DNA of 57,002 nucleotides from contig CANQYK010000002.1 of assembly GCA_947628065.1 (NCBI GenBank), positions 1 through 57,002 of the forward strand, in the 5' to 3' direction. The translations under genes and the position numbers were made by a program. Below are positions 6,570 to 12,414 of this stretch, piece by piece. How positions within the stretch are numbered: position 1 is the first letter of the stretch; the number at the start of each line of letters is the position of its first letter. Under the pieces are notes generated by a model. That model was not told where the DNA came from. It did no database searches and worked only from the letters and a program-made list of their open reading frames with translations. This DNA is from an uncultured Bacilli bacterium. Lineage in GTDB: Bacteria > Bacillota_I > Bacilli_A > RF39 > UBA660.

Positions 6570-6703
6570 AATTGATTATTATAGTGCTGCTATGAAAGAA
6601 GAATAACTAGATCAATGTAGGATTAAAATTTCTTCTTTTTTTTCGTTTTAATTTTTGTTATACTTTTAATGGAATACATATATAGGAAAGGATGCGTGAT
6701 AAG

Positions 6704-9334
6704 ATGAAATATGTATATTCATTTAAAGAAGGAAATAAAGATATGCGTAACCTTCTTGGAGGAAAGGGAGCAAATCTTGCTGAAATGACAAGTTTAGGAC
6801 TACCTGTTCCAAGAGGATTTACCGTTACAACGGAAGCTTGTTTAAAGTATTATGAGGATAAAGAAGAATTAGCAAGTGACGTTGAAAAAGAAATTTTTGA
6901 GCAACTAAAAGCTTTAGAAGAATTAACAGGCAAAAAAATGGGAGATAAAGAAAATCCACTTTTGGTATCTGTTCGTAGTGGTGCGAGAGCATCTATGCCT
7001 GGAATGATGGATACCGTACTTAATCTTGGTATGAATGATGATGTTGCAGAAGGATTTAGTAAAGTAACCAACAATCCACGTTTTGTATATGATAGCTATC
7101 GTAGATTCATTCAAATGTTTGCAGATGTTGTTATGGGATTTCCAAAAAGTTCTTTTGAACGCTTATTTGATAAGATAAAAGAGGAGAAAAAAGTAGAATT
7201 TGATACAGAATTATCGGCAGAAGACTTGATGGAAGTTGTAGAAATTTATAAGAAAGAATATTTAAAACACGCAGGACGTGAATTTCCACAAGATCCAAAA
7301 GAACAATTATTAGAAGCAGTAAAAGCAGTATTCCGTAGTTGGAATAACGATAGAGCCATTACCTATCGAAGACTTAATAATATTCCATCTAGTTGGGGAA
7401 CGGCTGTTAATGTGCAAGAAATGGTTTATGGTAATCGTGGTGATACAAGTGGTACGGGTGTTGCATTTACAAGAAATCCTGCAACGGGTGAAAAACATCT
7501 ATATGGTGAATATTTAATGAATGCACAAGGAGAAGATGTAGTAGCAGGAATTCGTACTCCACAAGATATTAATACATTGAAAGAAGTTATGCCAGAATGT
7601 TATCAAGAATTTACAAAAATTTGTAAGATTTTAGAAGATCATTATTGTGATATGCAAGATATGGAATTTACCATTGAAGATGGAAAACTATTTATGCTTC
7701 AAACAAGAAATGGAAAAAGAACAGCCTCTGCTGCTTTAAAGATTGCAGTTGACCTTGTAGAAGAGGGAAAAATAACCAAAGAAGAAGCTTTATTAAAAGT
7801 AGAACCATCATCACTTGATCAACTATTACATCCAATGTTTGATATGGATGCTTTGAAGAAAGGCAAAGTTGTTGCGACAGGACTTGCTGCATCTCCTGGT
7901 GCTGCAACGGGTAAAATTTACTTTACGGCAGAAGATGTTATGAAGGCACATGAAGAAGGAGAGAAGGATTTACTTCTTGTAAGACTTGAAACATCTCCAG
8001 AAGATATTGAAGGAATGAGTCTTGCTCATGGTATTTTAACGGCTCGTGGTGGTATGACATCACACGCAGCTGTTGTAGCGCGTGGTATGGGAACTTGTTG
8101 TGTATCTGGTTGTGGTAGCATTGTAATTGATGAAGAAGCTAAGACGTTAAAAACAGAAGATGGAACGATTTATCATGAAGGAGATTACATGAGTTTAGAT
8201 GGTTCAACAGGAAACGTTTATGGAGAACAAATTAAAACAGTAGAACCAAAAATTAGTGGAAACTTTGAAACGTTCATGAATTGGGCTGATGAAGCACGTA
8301 CGTTAAAAGTAAGATGCAATGCGGATAATCCAAAAGATGCCGGTGTTGCACGAGACTTTGGAGCAGAAGGAATTGGACTTTGCAGAACAGAGCATATGTT
8401 CTTTGATAGTGAGAGAATCTTTAATTTTAGAAGAATGATTACTGCAGATACACTGGAAAAAAGAGAAGAAGCATTAGAGAAAATTCTTCCATATCAACGG
8501 GATGACTTTGAAGCACTTTTCCGTACTATGGAAGGTTATAATGTTGTAATTCGTTTCTTAGATCCACCACTTCATGAATTTTTACCACATACGGATGAAG
8601 AGATTAAACCACTTGCCGAAAGTCTTGATATTGCTTTTGAAGATTTAAAGAAGCGAATAGAGTCATTAAAAGAATTTAATCCAATGATGGGACATCGTGG
8701 TTGTCGTCTTGCAATTACATATCCTGAAATTGCTAAGATGCAAACAAGAGCAGTGATTGAAGCAGCGATAAAAGTAAACAAAGATGGTCTTAATGTGACA
8801 CCTGAGATTATGATTCCTCTTGTTGGAGATAAGAAGGAACTTGCTTATGTTAAGAATGTTGTTTGTGAAGTAGCAGATGAAATTATAAAGAAAGAAAAAG
8901 TTGATCTTACTTATAAAGTAGGTACGATGATTGAAATTCCACGTGCTGCATTAACTGCAGATCAACTCGCAGAAGAAGCAGAATTCTTCTCTTTTGGAAC
9001 CAATGATTTAACACAAATGACTTATGGATTTTCAAGAGATGATGCTTCTAAGTTCTTAAAAGATTATTACAGTAAGAAAATCTTTGAACAAGATCCATTC
9101 GCAACGCTTGATCAAGAAGGTGTTGGAAAACTTGTTAAGATGGCAAGTGAACTTGGAAGAAGTACAAGAAAAGATATGTCTATGGGAATCTGTGGAGAAC
9201 ATGGAGGAGATCCTAGAACGATTGAATTTTGTCATAACATAGGACTTACTTATGTATCTTGCAGCCCATACCGTATTCCAGTAGCAAGGCTTGCTGCCGC
9301 ACAAGCTGCTATTAAAGAAAAACAAGGAGAATAA
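6704..9334 (+). CDS. ppdK: Pyruvate, phosphate dikinase
   Basis: N-terminus MKYVYSFKEGNKDMRNLLGGKGANLAEM. Catalytic His region GGMTSHAAVVARGMG. C-terminal region RTEHMFF...GTNDLTQ. The ATG at 6692 is an alternative start. Confidence 0.95.
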   Translation: MKYVYSFKEGNKDMRNLLGGKGANLAEMTSLGLPVPRGFTVTTEACLKYYEDKEELASDVEKEIFEQLKALEELTGKKMGDKENPLLVSVRSGARASMPGMMDTVLNLGMNDDVAEGFSKVTNNPRFVYDSYRRFIQMFADVVMGFPKSSFERLFDKIKEEKKVEFDTELSAEDLMEVVEIYKKEYLKHAGREFPQDPKEQLLEAVKAVFRSWNNDRAITYRRLNNIPSSWGTAVNVQEMVYGNRGDTSGTGVAFTRNPATGEKHLYGEYLMNAQGEDVVAGIRTPQDINTLKEVMPECYQEFTKICKILEDHYCDMQDMEFTIEDGKLFMLQTRNGKRTASAALKIAVDLVEEGKITKEEALLKVEPSSLDQLLHPMFDMDALKKGKVVATGLAASPGAATGKIYFTAEDVMKAHEEGEKDLLLVRLETSPEDIEGMSLAHGILTARGGMTSHAAVVARGMGTCCVSGCGSIVIDEEAKTLKTEDGTIYHEGDYMSLDGSTGNVYGEQIKTVEPKISGNFETFMNWADEARTLKVRCNADNPKDAGVARDFGAEGIGLCRTEHMFFDSERIFNFRRMITADTLEKREEALEKILPYQRDDFEALFRTMEGYNVVIRFLDPPLHEFLPHTDEEIKPLAESLDIAFEDLKKRIESLKEFNPMMGHRGCRLAITYPEIAKMQTRAVIEAAIKVNKDGLNVTPEIMIPLVGDKKELAYVKNVVCEVADEIIKKEKVDLTYKVGTMIEIPRAALTADQLAEEAEFFSFGTNDLTQMTYGFSRDDASKFLKDYYSKKIFEQDPFATLDQEGVGKLVKMASELGRSTRKDMSMGICGEHGGDPRTIEFCHNIGLTYVSCSPYRIPVARLAAAQAAIKEKQGE

Positions 9335-9346
9335 CAAATGATTAAG

Positions 9347-9372
9347 GACTAAGGAACACTTAGTCTTTTTTT
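9347..9372 (+). terminator. Rho-independent terminator of ppdK
   Basis: Stem GACTAAG (9347-9353) / CTTAGTC (9359-9365), followed by T7. Confidence 0.75.
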
Positions 9373-9482
9373 CTAAACAAGAATAGTGTAATAATTTTTT
9401 AAAATAAAAAGTTATTACGGTTTAGAGTAATAACTTTACAAAACTATGGAAATAATATATAATGTAACTAGAGGTGATTATT

Positions 9483-10688
9483 ATGCTTTTAAGAGAAGAT
9501 TATTTATCAAAAATAAGAGGGTTTTATGACTCAAATTTAATTAAAATACTAGTAGGTATTAGAAGATGTGGCAAATCAGTTATTTTAAGTCAAATCATAA
9601 ATGAACTAAAAGAACAAAGAAAAATCGATGAGAATCATATAATTTTTATTAACTTTGAATTTATAGAATATGAGGACTTACTGGATTATAAAAAATTAAA
9701 TCAATATGTCAAAGATAAAGTTCAAGATAGCAAAATGTATTATTTATTTTTCGATGAAATTCAAAATGTAGATCAATTTGAAAAAGTGATTAATTCGTTA
9801 AGAGCATCCATAAAGAACATCAGCATCTTTTTAACTGGATCAAATAGTAAAATGTTATCCGATGAATTATCATCCGTTTTATCAGGCAGATATGTTTTAT
9901 TTAATATTAATCCATTATCTTATAAAGAATATATTGCTTTAACCAATAAAGATGGAAAAGATTTAAATACTTTTTGGGACTATGCTAAATGGGGAGGACT
10001 TCCTAATAGATGTGAATTTACAGATGAGTCAGATATAAAAAATTATCTTCATAGTGTATATGATTCTATTATCTTACGAGATGTTGTTAAAAGATTAAAT
10101 TTAAAAGATACTATTCTTTTTGACATGATATTACAATATTTGATTGAAACAACAGGTCGTGAATTTTCGGCAGATAATATTATAAAATATCTAAATAAAG
10201 AAAACAAAAATATATCAAATGAAACATTATATAATTATATTGATGCCTTATGTAAAGCTTTAATAGTAAAGAAGGTTTATCGATATGATATTGTTGGTAA
10301 AGGAGTATTAAAAACATTAAATAAATATTATGTAACTGATTTGGGTATTGCTCAAATAAAAAATAACAATCCTGAGTTTCGGAATTATGTTGTATTAGAA
10401 AATATTGTTTATAATGAGTTAATAAATAGAAATTATGAAGTCTATATTGGTAAAACTAAAAATGGTGAGGTTGACTTTTTAGCAAAAAAGGAAGGAAGTA
10501 TTAAATATTTTCAAGTAACTTATGAAATGAAAGATAACGAAAGTACTATCGAAAGAGAATTTAGTGCACTTAAATCTATTAAAGATAATTATCCAAAATA
10601 TGTTCTTTCTCTTGATAAGATAGATTTATCTCGGGATGGTATTATTCATTTAAATTTAATTGATTTCTTATTAAGTAATGAATTTTAG
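9483..10688 (+). CDS. AAA+ ATPase (AAA_14) with C-terminal DUF4143-like domain
   Basis: Walker A GIRRCGKS and Walker B LFFDEIQ. C-terminal region GEVDFLAKKEGSIKYFQV is typical of DUF4143. Start ATG at 9483 follows a GAGGTGA RBS. Confidence 0.75.
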   Translation: MLLREDYLSKIRGFYDSNLIKILVGIRRCGKSVILSQIINELKEQRKIDENHIIFINFEFIEYEDLLDYKKLNQYVKDKVQDSKMYYLFFDEIQNVDQFEKVINSLRASIKNISIFLTGSNSKMLSDELSSVLSGRYVLFNINPLSYKEYIALTNKDGKDLNTFWDYAKWGGLPNRCEFTDESDIKNYLHSVYDSIILRDVVKRLNLKDTILFDMILQYLIETTGREFSADNIIKYLNKENKNISNETLYNYIDALCKALIVKKVYRYDIVGKGVLKTLNKYYVTDLGIAQIKNNNPEFRNYVVLENIVYNELINRNYEVYIGKTKNGEVDFLAKKEGSIKYFQVTYEMKDNESTIEREFSALKSIKDNYPKYVLSLDKIDLSRDGIIHLNLIDFLLSNEF

Positions 10689-10818
10689 TAATAATTTAAA
10701 ATGTAAGTGAAATTTAACAAATTTTTTTATTGGGTATTAGTACAATGATATGAAAGAAAAAACGAATTATAAAATTATAATTTGATATTTCTTTGCATAT
10801 ACTAACATTGTATACTAT

Positions 10819-10847
10819 TTGACATTTTCTGAAAAATATAGTATATT
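10819..10847 (+). promoter_or_regulatory. Consensus-like sigma-A promoter of the type III TA module
   Basis: TTGACA (10819-10824), a 17-nt spacer, then TATATT (10842-10847). Confidence 0.7.
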
Positions 10848-10872
10848 ATTATTGCACTTGGAAAAGTGTGTA

Positions 10873-10980
10873 AATGTTTTTCGCTTCTGGATGGTGCGAA
10901 TAATAAATGATTCCAGGCGACAATGTTTTTCGCTTCCAGGTGGTGCGACTAATAAATGATCCTGGTTGAAAATGTAGAAT
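10873..10980 (+). ncRNA. Tandem 49-nt repeat array (2 full units plus a partial third): candidate type III antitoxin RNA
   Basis: The units at 10873-10921 and 10922-10970 are head-to-tail with no spacer. A third unit starts AATGT at 10971. Each unit carries a 5-bp stem: CTGGA/TCCAG in unit 1 and CCAGG/CCTGG in unit 2. Three base pairs covary. Confidence 0.75.
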
Positions 10981-11010
10981 AACTTCATCGTAAGGTGGAG
11001 TTTTCTTTTT
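10981..11010 (+). terminator. Intrinsic terminator/attenuator between the repeat array and the toxin gene
   Basis: Stem AACTTCA (10981-10987) / TGGAGTT (10996-11002) with one G-U pair, followed by TTCTTTTT. Confidence 0.6.
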
Positions 11011-11045
11011 CTTTGTGGTATTATGTACTTATGGAGTTGATGACA

Positions 11046-11519
11046 ATGAAAATAAAAACAGGTTATTTATATCATATAAAAGATGAATATTTTGATATTG
11101 TTAATGATGAAACTTTAATGCAAAACCATGAAAGAGGAAAGAAAAGACCAACTTATTTTACTATTAAAGATAAGAATATTCTATGGTTTATTCCGATTAG
11201 TTCTAAAGTAGATAAATATCAAAAAATCATTGATAAAAAAGTTAAAAAGTATGGATTTTGTAATACTATAATTATTAGAAAAATTGCTAATGAAGATGCT
11301 GCTATATTACTACAAAATGCGTTTCCAACATTAGAAAAATATATAGACCATGTTCATACTGTTGATGGTGTACCACTAAAAGTTCCAACAGATTTACAAA
11401 ATGAAATTAAAAGTTTATTTAAAAATATGATAGGATTAAAAAAGAGAGGTACAAATTTATTTTTTACAGATATCGATAAATTAAAAGATAAAATGTTAGA
11501 AGAAACGAAAAAAAATTAA
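11046..11519 (+). CDS. ToxN/AbiQ-like type III toxin (endoribonuclease), 157 aa
   Basis: The N-terminal pattern YLYHIKDEYFDIV...KKRPTYFTIKDKNILWFIPISSKVDKY resembles the ToxN/AbiQ signature (Y.I...Y..YL..D.KV ... RPY.G......YF.PLSSPK.K). The context of repeats plus a terminator supports the call. Confidence 0.7.
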   Translation: MKIKTGYLYHIKDEYFDIVNDETLMQNHERGKKRPTYFTIKDKNILWFIPISSKVDKYQKIIDKKVKKYGFCNTIIIRKIANEDAAILLQNAFPTLEKYIDHVHTVDGVPLKVPTDLQNEIKSLFKNMIGLKKRGTNLFFTDIDKLKDKMLEETKKN

Positions 11520-11555
11520 GACTAAGGTGAATGTATTATAAACCTTAGTCTTTTA
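11520..11555 (+). terminator. Rho-independent terminator
   Basis: Stem GACTAAGG (11520-11527) / CCTTAGTC (11543-11550), followed by TTTT. Confidence 0.65.
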
Positions 11556-11680: not shown

Positions 11681-12414
11681 ATGAAGAAGTTTTTAGGAGT
11701 ATTTATTTTAATTATTTTTGTTATGCCTATATCAGTAGTAGGGCAAAGCGGTTGTTGTTCTCACCATGATGGAGTTGCTGGGTGTGGTGCGAATGGCAAG
11801 CAAATTTGCAATGATGGAACTTATAGTCCTACTTGTACTTGTAGTCCTAGTGTTGCACCAACACCAAATTATCGTTATGGATGTACGGATCCTAATGCTT
11901 ATAATTATGATAGTTCTGCTAATAAAGATAACGGAAGTTGCATCGCGAAAGTTTATGGTTGTATGGATAAAAATAGTATGAATTATAATGCTTCTGCTAA
12001 TATAGCTGATGGCAGTTGTCAATATCGAAAAGAAATAATACGGGAAGAAGATGTATCGTATTCTACAAAAACAGTAAAGGCGAAAAAAAAGCAATAAAAC
12101 AAAAAGGTGTGAATGGAAAAAAGCAGATAATAGAAGAACAAGTAGTGAATGAAAAAGGTGAAATAATATCCAGCAATATAAAAGAAGAAAAAGTGATAAC
12201 GGAACCAGTTGAAGAAATTGTAGTTGAAGTTCCAAATACCAGTACAAAGGAAAAGCAAGTAACAACATCAGAAAAAGAAAAACAATCAAAAAAGAATAAG
12301 ACAGAAAATAAGGCAGAAGAAAATTCAATTTTAGCTACGATATTTGGAATTGGTTTGATAGGTGGAATTGGATATATAATTTATAGAAAAAAAAAGAAAT
12401 TAATAAACTTATAG
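11681..12414 (+). pseudogene. Secreted Cys-rich / G5-domain / C-terminally anchored surface protein, interrupted by a frameshift at an A8 tract
   Basis: ORF 11681-12097 carries a signal peptide, CCSHHDGVAGC and two GC.D.NA.NY..SAN..DGSC repeats. ORF 12016-12414 carries the rest of the G5-like domain, a charged linker and the TM helix ILATIFGIGLIGGIGYIIY plus a KKKK stretch. The two ORFs join in frame if the A8 run (12083-12090) were A9. Confidence 0.7.

Follow-up and report, generated by a model that had tools for sequence, protein, structure and literature searches.

[quoted passage not shown] 2012, PMC3401426), and a crystal structure followed in 2015 (Rao et al. 2015, PMC4627078). Families of this type are delimited by similarity between toxin sequences. 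The Eubacterium rectale (E. rectale) complex solved in that study (CptIN-Er, PDB 4RMO) is a closed heterotetramer of two proteins and two RNAs, an assembly known for CptIN-Er only. Its operon comprises a promoter, about two tandem repeats, a terminator and a gene for a toxin of about 155 residues; loop 2 of its antitoxin RNA CptI-Er (AUAUAAAUG) is functionally required, and processing of this RNA required a 3'-AAG. In the 2012 survey, cptI repeats measured 40–48 nt (mean 44.8) in 1.9–3.4 copies (n = 33; Table 2), and CptN relatives were found on chromosomes only (PMC3401426). The literature describes cptI repeats as almost identical. The ToxIN systems of P. atrosepticum and B. thuringiensis and AbiQ/antiQ of L. 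lactis have the common type III logic, the toxin superfamily fold and a processed, pseudoknotted repeat RNA as antitoxin. However, their toxins form another family, their repeats are shorter (34–36 nt, family mean 38) and more numerous (2.8–5.5 copies), and both ToxIN complexes are heterohexamers with triplex-containing pseudoknots. TenpIN systems (Photorhabdus luminescens; 2025 survey, PMC12283969) have about two long repeats of 39–57 nt, often non-identical and with an A-rich stretch, and a toxin that probably belongs to a different family from the one described here.

The locus described here lies in a 57,002-nt stretch of DNA from an uncultured Bacilli bacterium (contig CANQYK010000002.1), referred to below as the window. 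It has the same order of elements as CptIN-Er, and we consider it very likely (probability roughly 0.88) to be a chromosomal CptIN-family type III toxin-antitoxin module working by the mechanism proposed below. The analysis established the family membership of the toxin, its fold (as a predicted structure), a conserved operon layout, an antitoxin pseudoknot supported by covariation, and purifying selection. The locus is a well-preserved copy of a known pair of RNA antitoxin and protein toxin, not a new kind of system. Re-reading of the sequence recovered every feature listed in the initial annotation, i.e. the promoter, two 49-nt units with 5 nt of a third, the terminator and the 157-residue open reading frame, at the positions given below.

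10819–10847, + strand: sigma-70-type promoter of the cptIN operon (TTGACA at 10819–10824, 17-nt spacer, TATATT at 10842–10847)
10854–10869, + strand: small leader hairpin between the -10 box and unit 1, GCACUU-GGAA-AAGUGU
10873–10921, + strand: CptI antitoxin unit 1, 49 nt (TRF, sequence and pair counts over 54 distinct units)
10880–10884 with 10896–10900, + strand: predicted stem 1 of unit 1, TTCGC/GCGAA
10887–10891 with 10912–10916, + strand: predicted stem 2 of unit 1, CTGGA/TCCAG
10901–10911, + strand: predicted A-rich loop 2 of unit 1, UAAUAAAUGAU
End of unit 1, + strand: 3' tail, GCGAC
10922–10970, + strand: CptI antitoxin unit 2, 49 nt (TRF, sequence and pair counts over 54 distinct units)
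10930–10933 with 10945–10948, + strand: predicted stem 1 of unit 2, TCGC/GCGA
10936–10940 with 10961–10965, + strand: predicted stem 2 of unit 2, CCAGG/CCTGG
End of unit 2, + strand: 3' tail, UUGAA
10971–10975, + strand: start of a third unit, AATGT (the TRF array ends at 10975)
10981–11012, + strand: intrinsic terminator separating the CptI repeats from cptN (terminator scan; 9-bp stem at 10981–11002, then the U-run TTCTTTTTCT)
11014–11024, + strand: possible extended -10 element TGTGGTATTAT between terminator and ribosome-binding site, fitting TRTGnTATAnT, with no -35 box
11033–11036, + strand: ribosome-binding site GGAG, spaced 9 nt from the ATG and conserved in relatives
11046–11519, + strand: cptN, CptN-family endoribonuclease toxin of 157 residues (NCBIfam, PDB 4RMO, AF2/Foldseek)
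11518–11554, + strand: 3' hairpin and short U-run after cptN (folded hairpin 11518–11552)

The assignment of the toxin is the clearest part of the analysis. The protein matches the NCBIfam equivalog 'CptIN' (NF047359) with 161 bits (cut-off 90; E 1.7e-47), residues 6–150 covering all 150 profile positions. The initial annotation had rightly included CptIN among the candidate families, but the resemblance to ToxN/AbiQ that it pointed out does not hold at the family level. The Pfam family ToxN_toxin (PF13958) aligns over nearly the full length with only 15.9 bits against a gathering threshold of 25 (E 0.016), a relationship at the superfamily level only. CptIN was the sole relevant NCBIfam match at E ≤ 1, besides one irrelevant weak match, and among the type III toxin models of that library it alone matched this protein; no PADLOC model matches the locus. 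The best PDB match by sequence is CptN-Er in 4RMO (phmmer, E 4.9e-21, residues 4–147), the closest solved homologue, with 35% identity. An AF2 model built from an input alignment without the 4RMO sequence (pLDDT 94.6, pTM 0.88) gave 4RMO_A as its top Foldseek match (E 6.8e-14, TM 0.82), followed by AbiQ (TM 0.74) and then MazF/CcdB.

All near-invariant residues of an alignment of 34 diverse members including 4RMO are present in the window protein (Y9, P35, W47, P50, S52, K57, L88, Q90 and P94), and in its SSK motif and His104 it agrees with the majority of the family. The active-site core is conserved (Ser-Ser-Arg/Lys triad region, IPxSSK..KY and FLIQN.FP), whereas Asp81, Ser85 and Tyr104, which determine the scissile adenine in CptN-Er, correspond here to a gap, Ala and His and are unconserved across the family. 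The toxin gene is under purifying selection, with dN/dS values of 0.03–0.28 at dS 0.4–2. A longer reading frame from a GTG at 10995 was rejected, since this codon sits inside the terminator and the homologues begin at the ATG at 11046 with its well-spaced GGAG.

The promoter agrees with the consensus at 11 of 12 positions, is the best promoter-like site in a 1.2-kb scan, and is nearly invariant among 60 distinct related upstream sequences. Both the leader hairpin (-6.0 kcal/mol, z -3.7) and the intrinsic terminator (-11.8 kcal/mol, z -4.6) have compensatory stem variants in relatives (for the former GCTACTT/AAGTGGT, GCCATT/AATGGT and GTCACTT/AGTGAT), the terminator being conserved. The candidate extended -10 element has counterparts in most related loci, in the form TATGGTATACT or TATGATATATT. 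As for the terminator that had been annotated after cptN, a hairpin is indeed present (-14.2 kcal/mol, z -4.1, with a 13-nt loop as folded), but it is weaker than that label implies: its core stem has 8 bp (11520–11527/11543–11550), the loop is 15 nt if the core is counted alone, and only four U follow. It is a probable weak terminator, and the long loop and short U-run explain why it is not in the output of the consensus terminator scan.

TRF describes the array at 10872–10975 as 2.1 copies of period 49 with 82% matches (score 143). A two-unit array precedes the toxin homologue in 76 loci including the window, i.e. wherever a related locus has sufficient sequence on that side, and its presence is beyond chance. 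The canonical type III order of promoter, repeats, terminator and toxin gene had been read correctly. The period had been called unusually long, and taken as a possible sign of a divergent or new subfamily, because the comparison was made with the wrong family (ToxI, 36 nt). Repeats of close relatives measure 49–51 nt and those of distant relatives 44–49 nt, so that a period of 49 nt is normal for the CptIN family and 1 nt above the range of the 2012 survey; with this continuity and the equivalog score given above, a new subfamily is unsupported. The window array falls outside the ToxIN/AbiQ range in both length and copy number, and resembles TenpIN arrays in its two non-identical units. The window units are longer than the 45-nt repeats of CptI-Er, and most of the added bases belong to loop 2, the 5' tail and the junction of stem 2 with stem 1'.

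Of the 49 positions, nine differ between the two units, and six of these nine make up the three compensatory pairs named in the initial annotation. They can be told apart by CUGGA/UCCAG and GCGAC in unit 1, and by CCAGG/CCUGG and UUGAA in unit 2. An AATG after unit 2 is retained in nearly all related loci and, as in CptIN-Er, the last junction is supplied by a partial third repeat. By analogy with the 3'-AAG needed for processing of CptI-Er, AATGT probably supplies the downstream half of the site at which unit 2 is released. The last base is C in unit 1 but A in unit 2, and no single simple cleavage rule therefore fits all three junctions.

In silico, each unit is predicted to form an H-type pseudoknot whose loop 2 is rich in A. 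Over the 54 distinct units from the 76 related loci, 96.1% of cells are paired and six of the ten pairs show double-sided changes, and the earlier proposal that the compensatory differences reflect a selected RNA helix is thereby upheld; the covarying stem is, however, stem 2 of a pseudoknot rather than a simple hairpin. None of 500 shuffles equalled this count, a result that is not a probability because the units share ancestry, and slid registers gave 26–53% pairing. The same topology was recovered by an anchor-free search in distant relatives and in the solved CptI-Er. The window units and CptI-Er alike have a 5' tail AAxGUUU, a stem 1 of 4–6 bp, a loop 1 of 1–2 nt, a stem 2 of 5–7 bp, an A-rich loop 2 with AUAAAUG (AUAAUAAAUGAU in the window, resembling that of CptI-Er), and a short 3' tail ending in GA(A/C). 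A single-sequence pseudoknot search was weakly discriminating, as 133 of 200 shuffles of the window array contained one or more pseudoknots of comparable score and 22 contained two or more, and units were mis-assigned or missed in four loci (L083, L088, L104 and L115); we therefore rely on covariation and positional homology. The minimum free energy fold of the precursor pairs CCAGG of unit 1 (10913–10917) with CCUGG of unit 2 (10961–10965), but over 26 related loci carry T instead of G at position 45 of the unit, and the pairing was rejected as a conserved feature for this reason. No Rfam family matches the repeat RNA in a permissive search (best E > 2, unrelated families), and at gathering thresholds only tRNAs were found in the whole window.

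We propose that transcription from the one promoter (10819–10847) would produce a short leader followed by the two 49-nt CptI units and the beginning of a third. Most transcripts would end at the terminator at 10981–11012 and a minority read through into cptN, and the terminator would in this way determine by how much antitoxin RNA outnumbers toxin mRNA. CptN, an endoribonuclease with a ToxN/Kid-like fold, would cleave the precursor where one unit meets the next, probably within GA[A/C]–AAUG (the dash marking the junction). Each released 49-nt unit would adopt the H-type pseudoknot, with a CGC/GCG core in stem 1, a variable stem 2 and AUAAAUG in the A-rich loop 2, and the single-stranded CptI tails would fill the active sites of CptN to give a closed, inactive RNA-protein ring. 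Should the supply of CptI RNA fail, free CptN would cut cellular RNA and cause growth arrest. The locus is probably functional; toxicity, RNA processing, neutralization, stoichiometry and trigger are extrapolated from characterized homologues with at most 35% identity to the window toxin.

Three other views of what the locus is fare poorly against this assignment. Membership in ToxIN/AbiQ, or the founding of a new type III subfamily with long repeats, could draw on the weak but nearly full-length ToxN_toxin match, on AbiQ as second-best structural match and on the 1-nt excess over the 2012 repeat range. It is essentially refuted by the contrast between a sub-threshold Pfam score and a strong equivalog score, by CptN as the best PDB match in both sequence and fold, by the continuum of repeat lengths among relatives (44–51 nt), and by an RNA topology and loop-2 motif matching CptI-Er. 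That the repeats act as DNA, as iterons or protein-binding sites, is even less credible: a regulator might in principle recognize tandem direct repeats just 3' of a promoter, but the compensatory changes preserve base-pairing and not sequence in two interleaved helices, the array lies on the coding strand between a promoter and a terminator, and it is homologous to an RNA of solved structure, so that the covariation pattern essentially refutes this reading as well. Decay into a non-functional remnant, in which repeats and reading frame no longer form a toxin-antitoxin pair, is very improbable. Several cptIN loci in the 2012 survey carry truncated toxins (PMC3401426) and the units here are only 82% identical, but the reading frame is full-length with all family-invariant residues and a low dN/dS, the promoter, terminator and ribosome-binding site are conserved, the differences between the units are compensatory, and unit 2 is 98.6% conserved between loci.

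The biological role of this CptIN module is a separate matter. ToxIN, AbiQ and TenpIN act in abortive infection (published), and here phage would deplete CptI, CptN would be set free and the cell would die before phage are released. Relatives occur on plasmids and on 74 IMG/VR viral contigs, as is typical of mobile defence genes, and the divergence of the cassette is incongruent with that of the neighbouring ppdK, which suggests cassette exchange. On the other hand, abortive infection has been demonstrated for ToxIN-Pa and AbiQ and for no CptIN, and the two phage-tested CptIN loci (E. rectale and R. torques) gave no resistance in E. coli (published). The locus is also without a PADLOC match, lies among housekeeping genes and not in a defence island, and its toxin has no protein-level match in the GenBank phage collection. 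A defence role appears rather unlikely, and the abortive-infection part of the initial annotation was overstated. A selfish addiction or stabilization element, or a domesticated growth regulator, at a fixed chromosomal site beside ppdK can be suggested tentatively. CptIN-Er stabilizes plasmids (published), a toxin relative is encoded in at least 370 species-level genomes, 32 of 80 related loci have the cassette immediately downstream of ppdK, and when both genes are compared over the same pairs of genomes, dN of the toxin is 5–10 times lower than dN of ppdK (leaving out L035, whose dN of 1.01 is an alignment artefact). Against this, a defence gene that passes between species should be just as strongly conserved, and the flank downstream of the cassette is variable.

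Family assignment alone is of little importance, as CptIN has been known since 2012, its structure has been solved and an NCBI annotation HMM recognizes the protein. The diverse set of CptI RNAs (units of 44–51 nt) provides, within the dataset used, comparative covariation support for both pseudoknot stems, and CptN relatives are now seen on viral contigs and plasmids, in contrast to chromosomes only in the 2012 survey. Unlike CptIN-Er, the window clade has two non-identical units, each separately conserved across about 50 species, and 45 of the units taken from related loci match unit 2 exactly; this is modestly unusual and contrary to the generalization of near-identical cptI repeats. For the CptIN clade of hundreds of gut 'uncultured Bacilli' species, one might speculate, though we hold it to be improbable, that the units are two conserved RNA isoforms with distinct roles, or parts of an obligately asymmetric ring with two CptN, in a cassette domesticated for a host function and not a selfish or defence element, a possibility raised because it is kept beside ppdK and its protein is more conserved than this housekeeping enzyme. 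The diversity of CptI, its isoforms and the relatives on mobile elements could inform laboratory work on how specific the antitoxins are and how the complex assembles.

Judged by its sequence, the locus is an ordinary member of the known, structurally characterised CptIN family; it is real, well preserved and very probably functional. The 157-aa ORF scores 161 bits (cut-off 90) in an end-to-end match to NF047359, an NCBIfam equivalog model for the 'type III toxin-antitoxin system CptIN family toxin', and its sole relative by sequence in the PDB is CptN of Eubacterium rectale (4RMO, E 4.9e-21). An AlphaFold model of the ORF (pLDDT 94.6) structurally matches, in this order, 4RMO_A (TM 0.82), AbiQ (0.74) and the MazF/Kid/CcdB toxins. 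The initial annotation had recognised a type III toxin-antitoxin module, which is upheld by the CptIN match, the full layout and the conserved array, but its likening of the toxin to ToxN/AbiQ has to be given up. Membership of ToxIN/AbiQ is ruled out by a Pfam ToxN_toxin (PF13958) score of 15.9 bits, under the gathering score of 25, together with the CptIN match and with 4RMO as the best PDB relative. The PADLOC models had no match to the ORF. An exhaustive search (E<=1e-3) yielded 1013 clusters at 50% identity, and the family is therefore large. When 34 diverse members (4RMO among them) were aligned, all near-invariant residues proved to be present in the window protein, whose SSK motif and His104 represent the majority states of the family; the E. 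rectale protein has SSR and Tyr104. The cptN gene is under strong purifying selection, with dN/dS of 0.03–0.28 at dS of 0.4–2 (27 relatives).

The promoter, repeats, terminator-like hairpin, 157-aa ORF and 3' hairpin originally described for 10819-11555 are all present. The features of the locus, preceded by the adjacent ATPase gene, are:

9474-10688, + strand: AAA_14/DUF4143 ATPase gene, 404 aa, inserted between ppdK (pyruvate phosphate dikinase gene) and cptIN in the window
10819-10847, + strand: promoter TTGACA-17-TATATT; 11/12 consensus positions, top site of the promoter scan
10854-10869, + strand: small, conserved leader hairpin between -10 box and first repeat; compensatory variants in relatives
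10872-10975, + strand: repeat array; Tandem Repeats Finder period 49, 2.1 copies, 82% matches
10873-10921, + strand: unit 1, from the sequence
10922-10970, + strand: unit 2, from the sequence
10971-10975, + strand: AATGT, start of a third unit, from the sequence
10981-11002, + strand: terminator-like hairpin, then U-run; terminator scan, -11.8 kcal/mol, z -4.6
11033-11036, + strand: GGAG (ribosome-binding site), from the sequence
11046-11519, + strand: cptN ORF, 157 aa; ORF call
11518-11552, + strand: 3' hairpin, -14.2 kcal/mol, z -4.1

The order of promoter, repeats, terminator and toxin is the canonical type III arrangement, generally read as yielding antitoxin RNA in excess over toxin mRNA (reviewed in PMC5086642). 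The promoter is near-invariant among 60 distinct upstream sequences of relatives, and the terminator between repeats and cptN is kept in relatives, with compensatory stem changes. The leader hairpin may help to define or shield the precursor's 5' end, or to place the first cleavage. The 3' hairpin is missing from the consensus terminator scan because its loop is long and its U-run short. Repeat array and cptN ORF are each present once in the window, without a second copy. A TRTGnTATAnT element (11014-11024, + strand), a possible extended -10 box that recurs in relatives, is located after the terminator and before the ribosome-binding site of cptN; a subgroup of these relatives (L019, L039-L042, L046, L056, L057, L060) has about 65 extra bases there, among them a further complete promoter-like copy, TTGACG...TAGTATATT. 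On account of these two elements, cptN may be driven by a weak promoter of its own in addition to terminator read-through.

In the solved structure, the 45 nt of the E. rectale CptI unit form an H-type pseudoknot in which loop 1 has a single base and loop 2 (A27-G35) is A-rich; this loop 2 is required for function (PMC4627078). The window units follow the same plan. Each runs from a 5' tail AAUGUUU(U) through stem 1 (U)UCGC/GCGA(A), 1-2 nt, stem 2, UGGU, the stem 1 partner, loop 2 (A/C)UAAUAAAUGAU and the stem 2 partner to a tail GCGAC or UUGAA. Stem 2 is the helix for which covariation had initially been noted, and homologues support it: in alignment A1, comprising 54 distinct units, 96.1% of cells are paired in the pseudoknot, with both-sided changes at 6 of the 10 pairs. 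This support was attained by 0/500 shuffles, and only 26-53% of cells pair in a control in which the 3' partners were slid by 1-3 columns. At least seven Watson-Crick helices are seen for stem 2 (CTGGA/TCCAG, CCAGG/CCTGG, CCGGG/CCCGG, CTGAA/TTCAG, CTAGA/TCTAG, CTGGG/CCCAG, CCTGG/CCAGG), and in stem 1 two pairs switch from U-A to C-G among the 54 units. An anchor-free pseudoknot search, weak as a single-sequence statistic, recovered the known E. rectale stems; of the 20 distant arrays covered, 16 gave two pseudoknots in the same register, as did the window. No Rfam family matches the repeat RNA. In the MFE structure of the unprocessed precursor, unit 1 pairs through a CCAGG at its end (10913-10917) with CCUGG of unit 2 (10961-10965), in rivalry with both native stem 2 helices; this pairing is not conserved, since many relatives have T at position 45. 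The GC content is 40.8% in the array, 22.2% in cptN and 29.7% in the window, and such a GC-rich array in AT-rich surroundings is what a structured RNA usually looks like in an AT-rich genome.

The 49-nt period had been regarded as unusually long and as a possible sign of a divergent or new subfamily. Published cptI repeats measure 40-48 nt (mean 44.8) in 1.9-3.4 copies, and toxI repeats 31-62 nt (Blower et al. 2012, PMC3401426). The same array is present in every one of the best 80 related loci from species-level genomes that has enough upstream sequence; two-unit arrays number 76, window included, with two 49-nt units in 55, two 51-nt units in 15, and mixed or 50-nt units in 6. Distant relatives (27-46% identity; viral contigs, plasmids) have array periods of 44-49 nt in about two copies. 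Given these ranges, 49 nt lies at the upper end of the normal range for CptI, long only beside ToxI, and with a toxin that matches the CptIN model nothing supports a new subfamily. The 51-nt units (L006, L062-L080) accompany toxins about 75-79% identical to that of the window, carry an extra CTA that lengthens the junction and stem 1 (CTCGC/GCGAG), and are nearly identical to one another within an array. In three hybrid arrays (L002, L003, L009), unit 1 measures 51 nt and unit 2 measures 49 nt; they look like products of recombination.

By homology with the solved E. rectale complex (Rao et al. 2015, PMC4627078), CptN would cleave the transcribed repeats where two units join, the 49-nt products would fold as pseudoknots, and their tails would block the active sites of the toxin within a closed ring; loss of the RNA would free the RNase. 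The junctions in related loci are always GA(A/C)|AAUG, unit 1 ending in C and unit 2 in A. The E. rectale residues reading the scissile adenine (Asp81, Ser85, Tyr104) are not conserved in the window CptN. The E. rectale system stabilised plasmids, and the two CptIN loci assayed against phages (E. rectale, R. torques) gave no resistance in E. coli.

CptN relatives are found on 74 IMG/VR viral contigs (L081-L154), most with two-copy arrays, and on six plasmids (H1-H6; 30-40% identity), with an upstream array of 47 and 49 nt in two of the three plasmid loci examined (L155-L157, from H1-H3). The GenBank phage collection holds no match to CptN, and the 2012 survey had placed cptIN on chromosomes only (Blower et al. 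2012, PMC3401426).

Units 1 and 2 of the window differ at 9/49 positions, six of which are the three compensatory stem pairs (CTGGA/TCCAG versus CCAGG/CCTGG) that the initial annotation had correctly named. In the 49-nt clade, the mean identity of the two units within an array is 79%, whereas conservation between loci is 93% for unit 1 and 98.6% for unit 2. The window's exact stem-2 pair recurs in 48 of the 76 loci, and related loci always have GAC at the end of unit 1 and GAA at that of unit 2. Since identity is high between loci and lower within arrays, the 'covariation' is an old, maintained isoform difference and not a recent event; on these alignments, the two units are distinct isoforms, each conserved across species. 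A 2025 survey reported toxI and cptI repeats as nearly identical and non-identical repeats as a tenpI trait (PMC12283969), and repeat identity is the one respect in which this locus departs from published cptI descriptions. In the distant arrays L081, L087 and L093, too, the two units are set apart by compensatory changes. The joint reading that the two-isoform array is functionally significant and the cassette possibly domesticated is, in our estimation, unlikely.

The window is an AT-rich housekeeping chromosome segment from a group whose gut metagenome-assembled genomes bear the labels 'uncultured Bacilli', Tenericutes or Erysipelotrichaceae. Directly downstream of ppdK is where cptIN lies in 32 of the best 80 related loci; the ATPase gene is absent from this position in the related loci, with two weak matches elsewhere. 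The downstream flank of the window cptIN is common to no related locus. At 11681-12414 (+ strand) it holds two overlapping ORFs, one of 138 aa with many cysteines, an N-terminus resembling a signal peptide and no Pfam match, the other of 132 aa with a sub-threshold G5-domain match; no related locus has a counterpart of either, so this flank is variable. When window 6692-11519 was compared with L003, L005, L006, L071, L074 and other related loci, CptN identity did not follow PPDK identity (96% versus 65% in L003, 76% versus 82% in L074). In several genome pairs, pS was 0.33-0.42 for cptN versus 0.60-0.62 for ppdK, and dN of cptN was 5-10 times lower. This suggests that cptN is strongly constrained and that species have to some extent exchanged the cassette, at a fixed site by ppdK.
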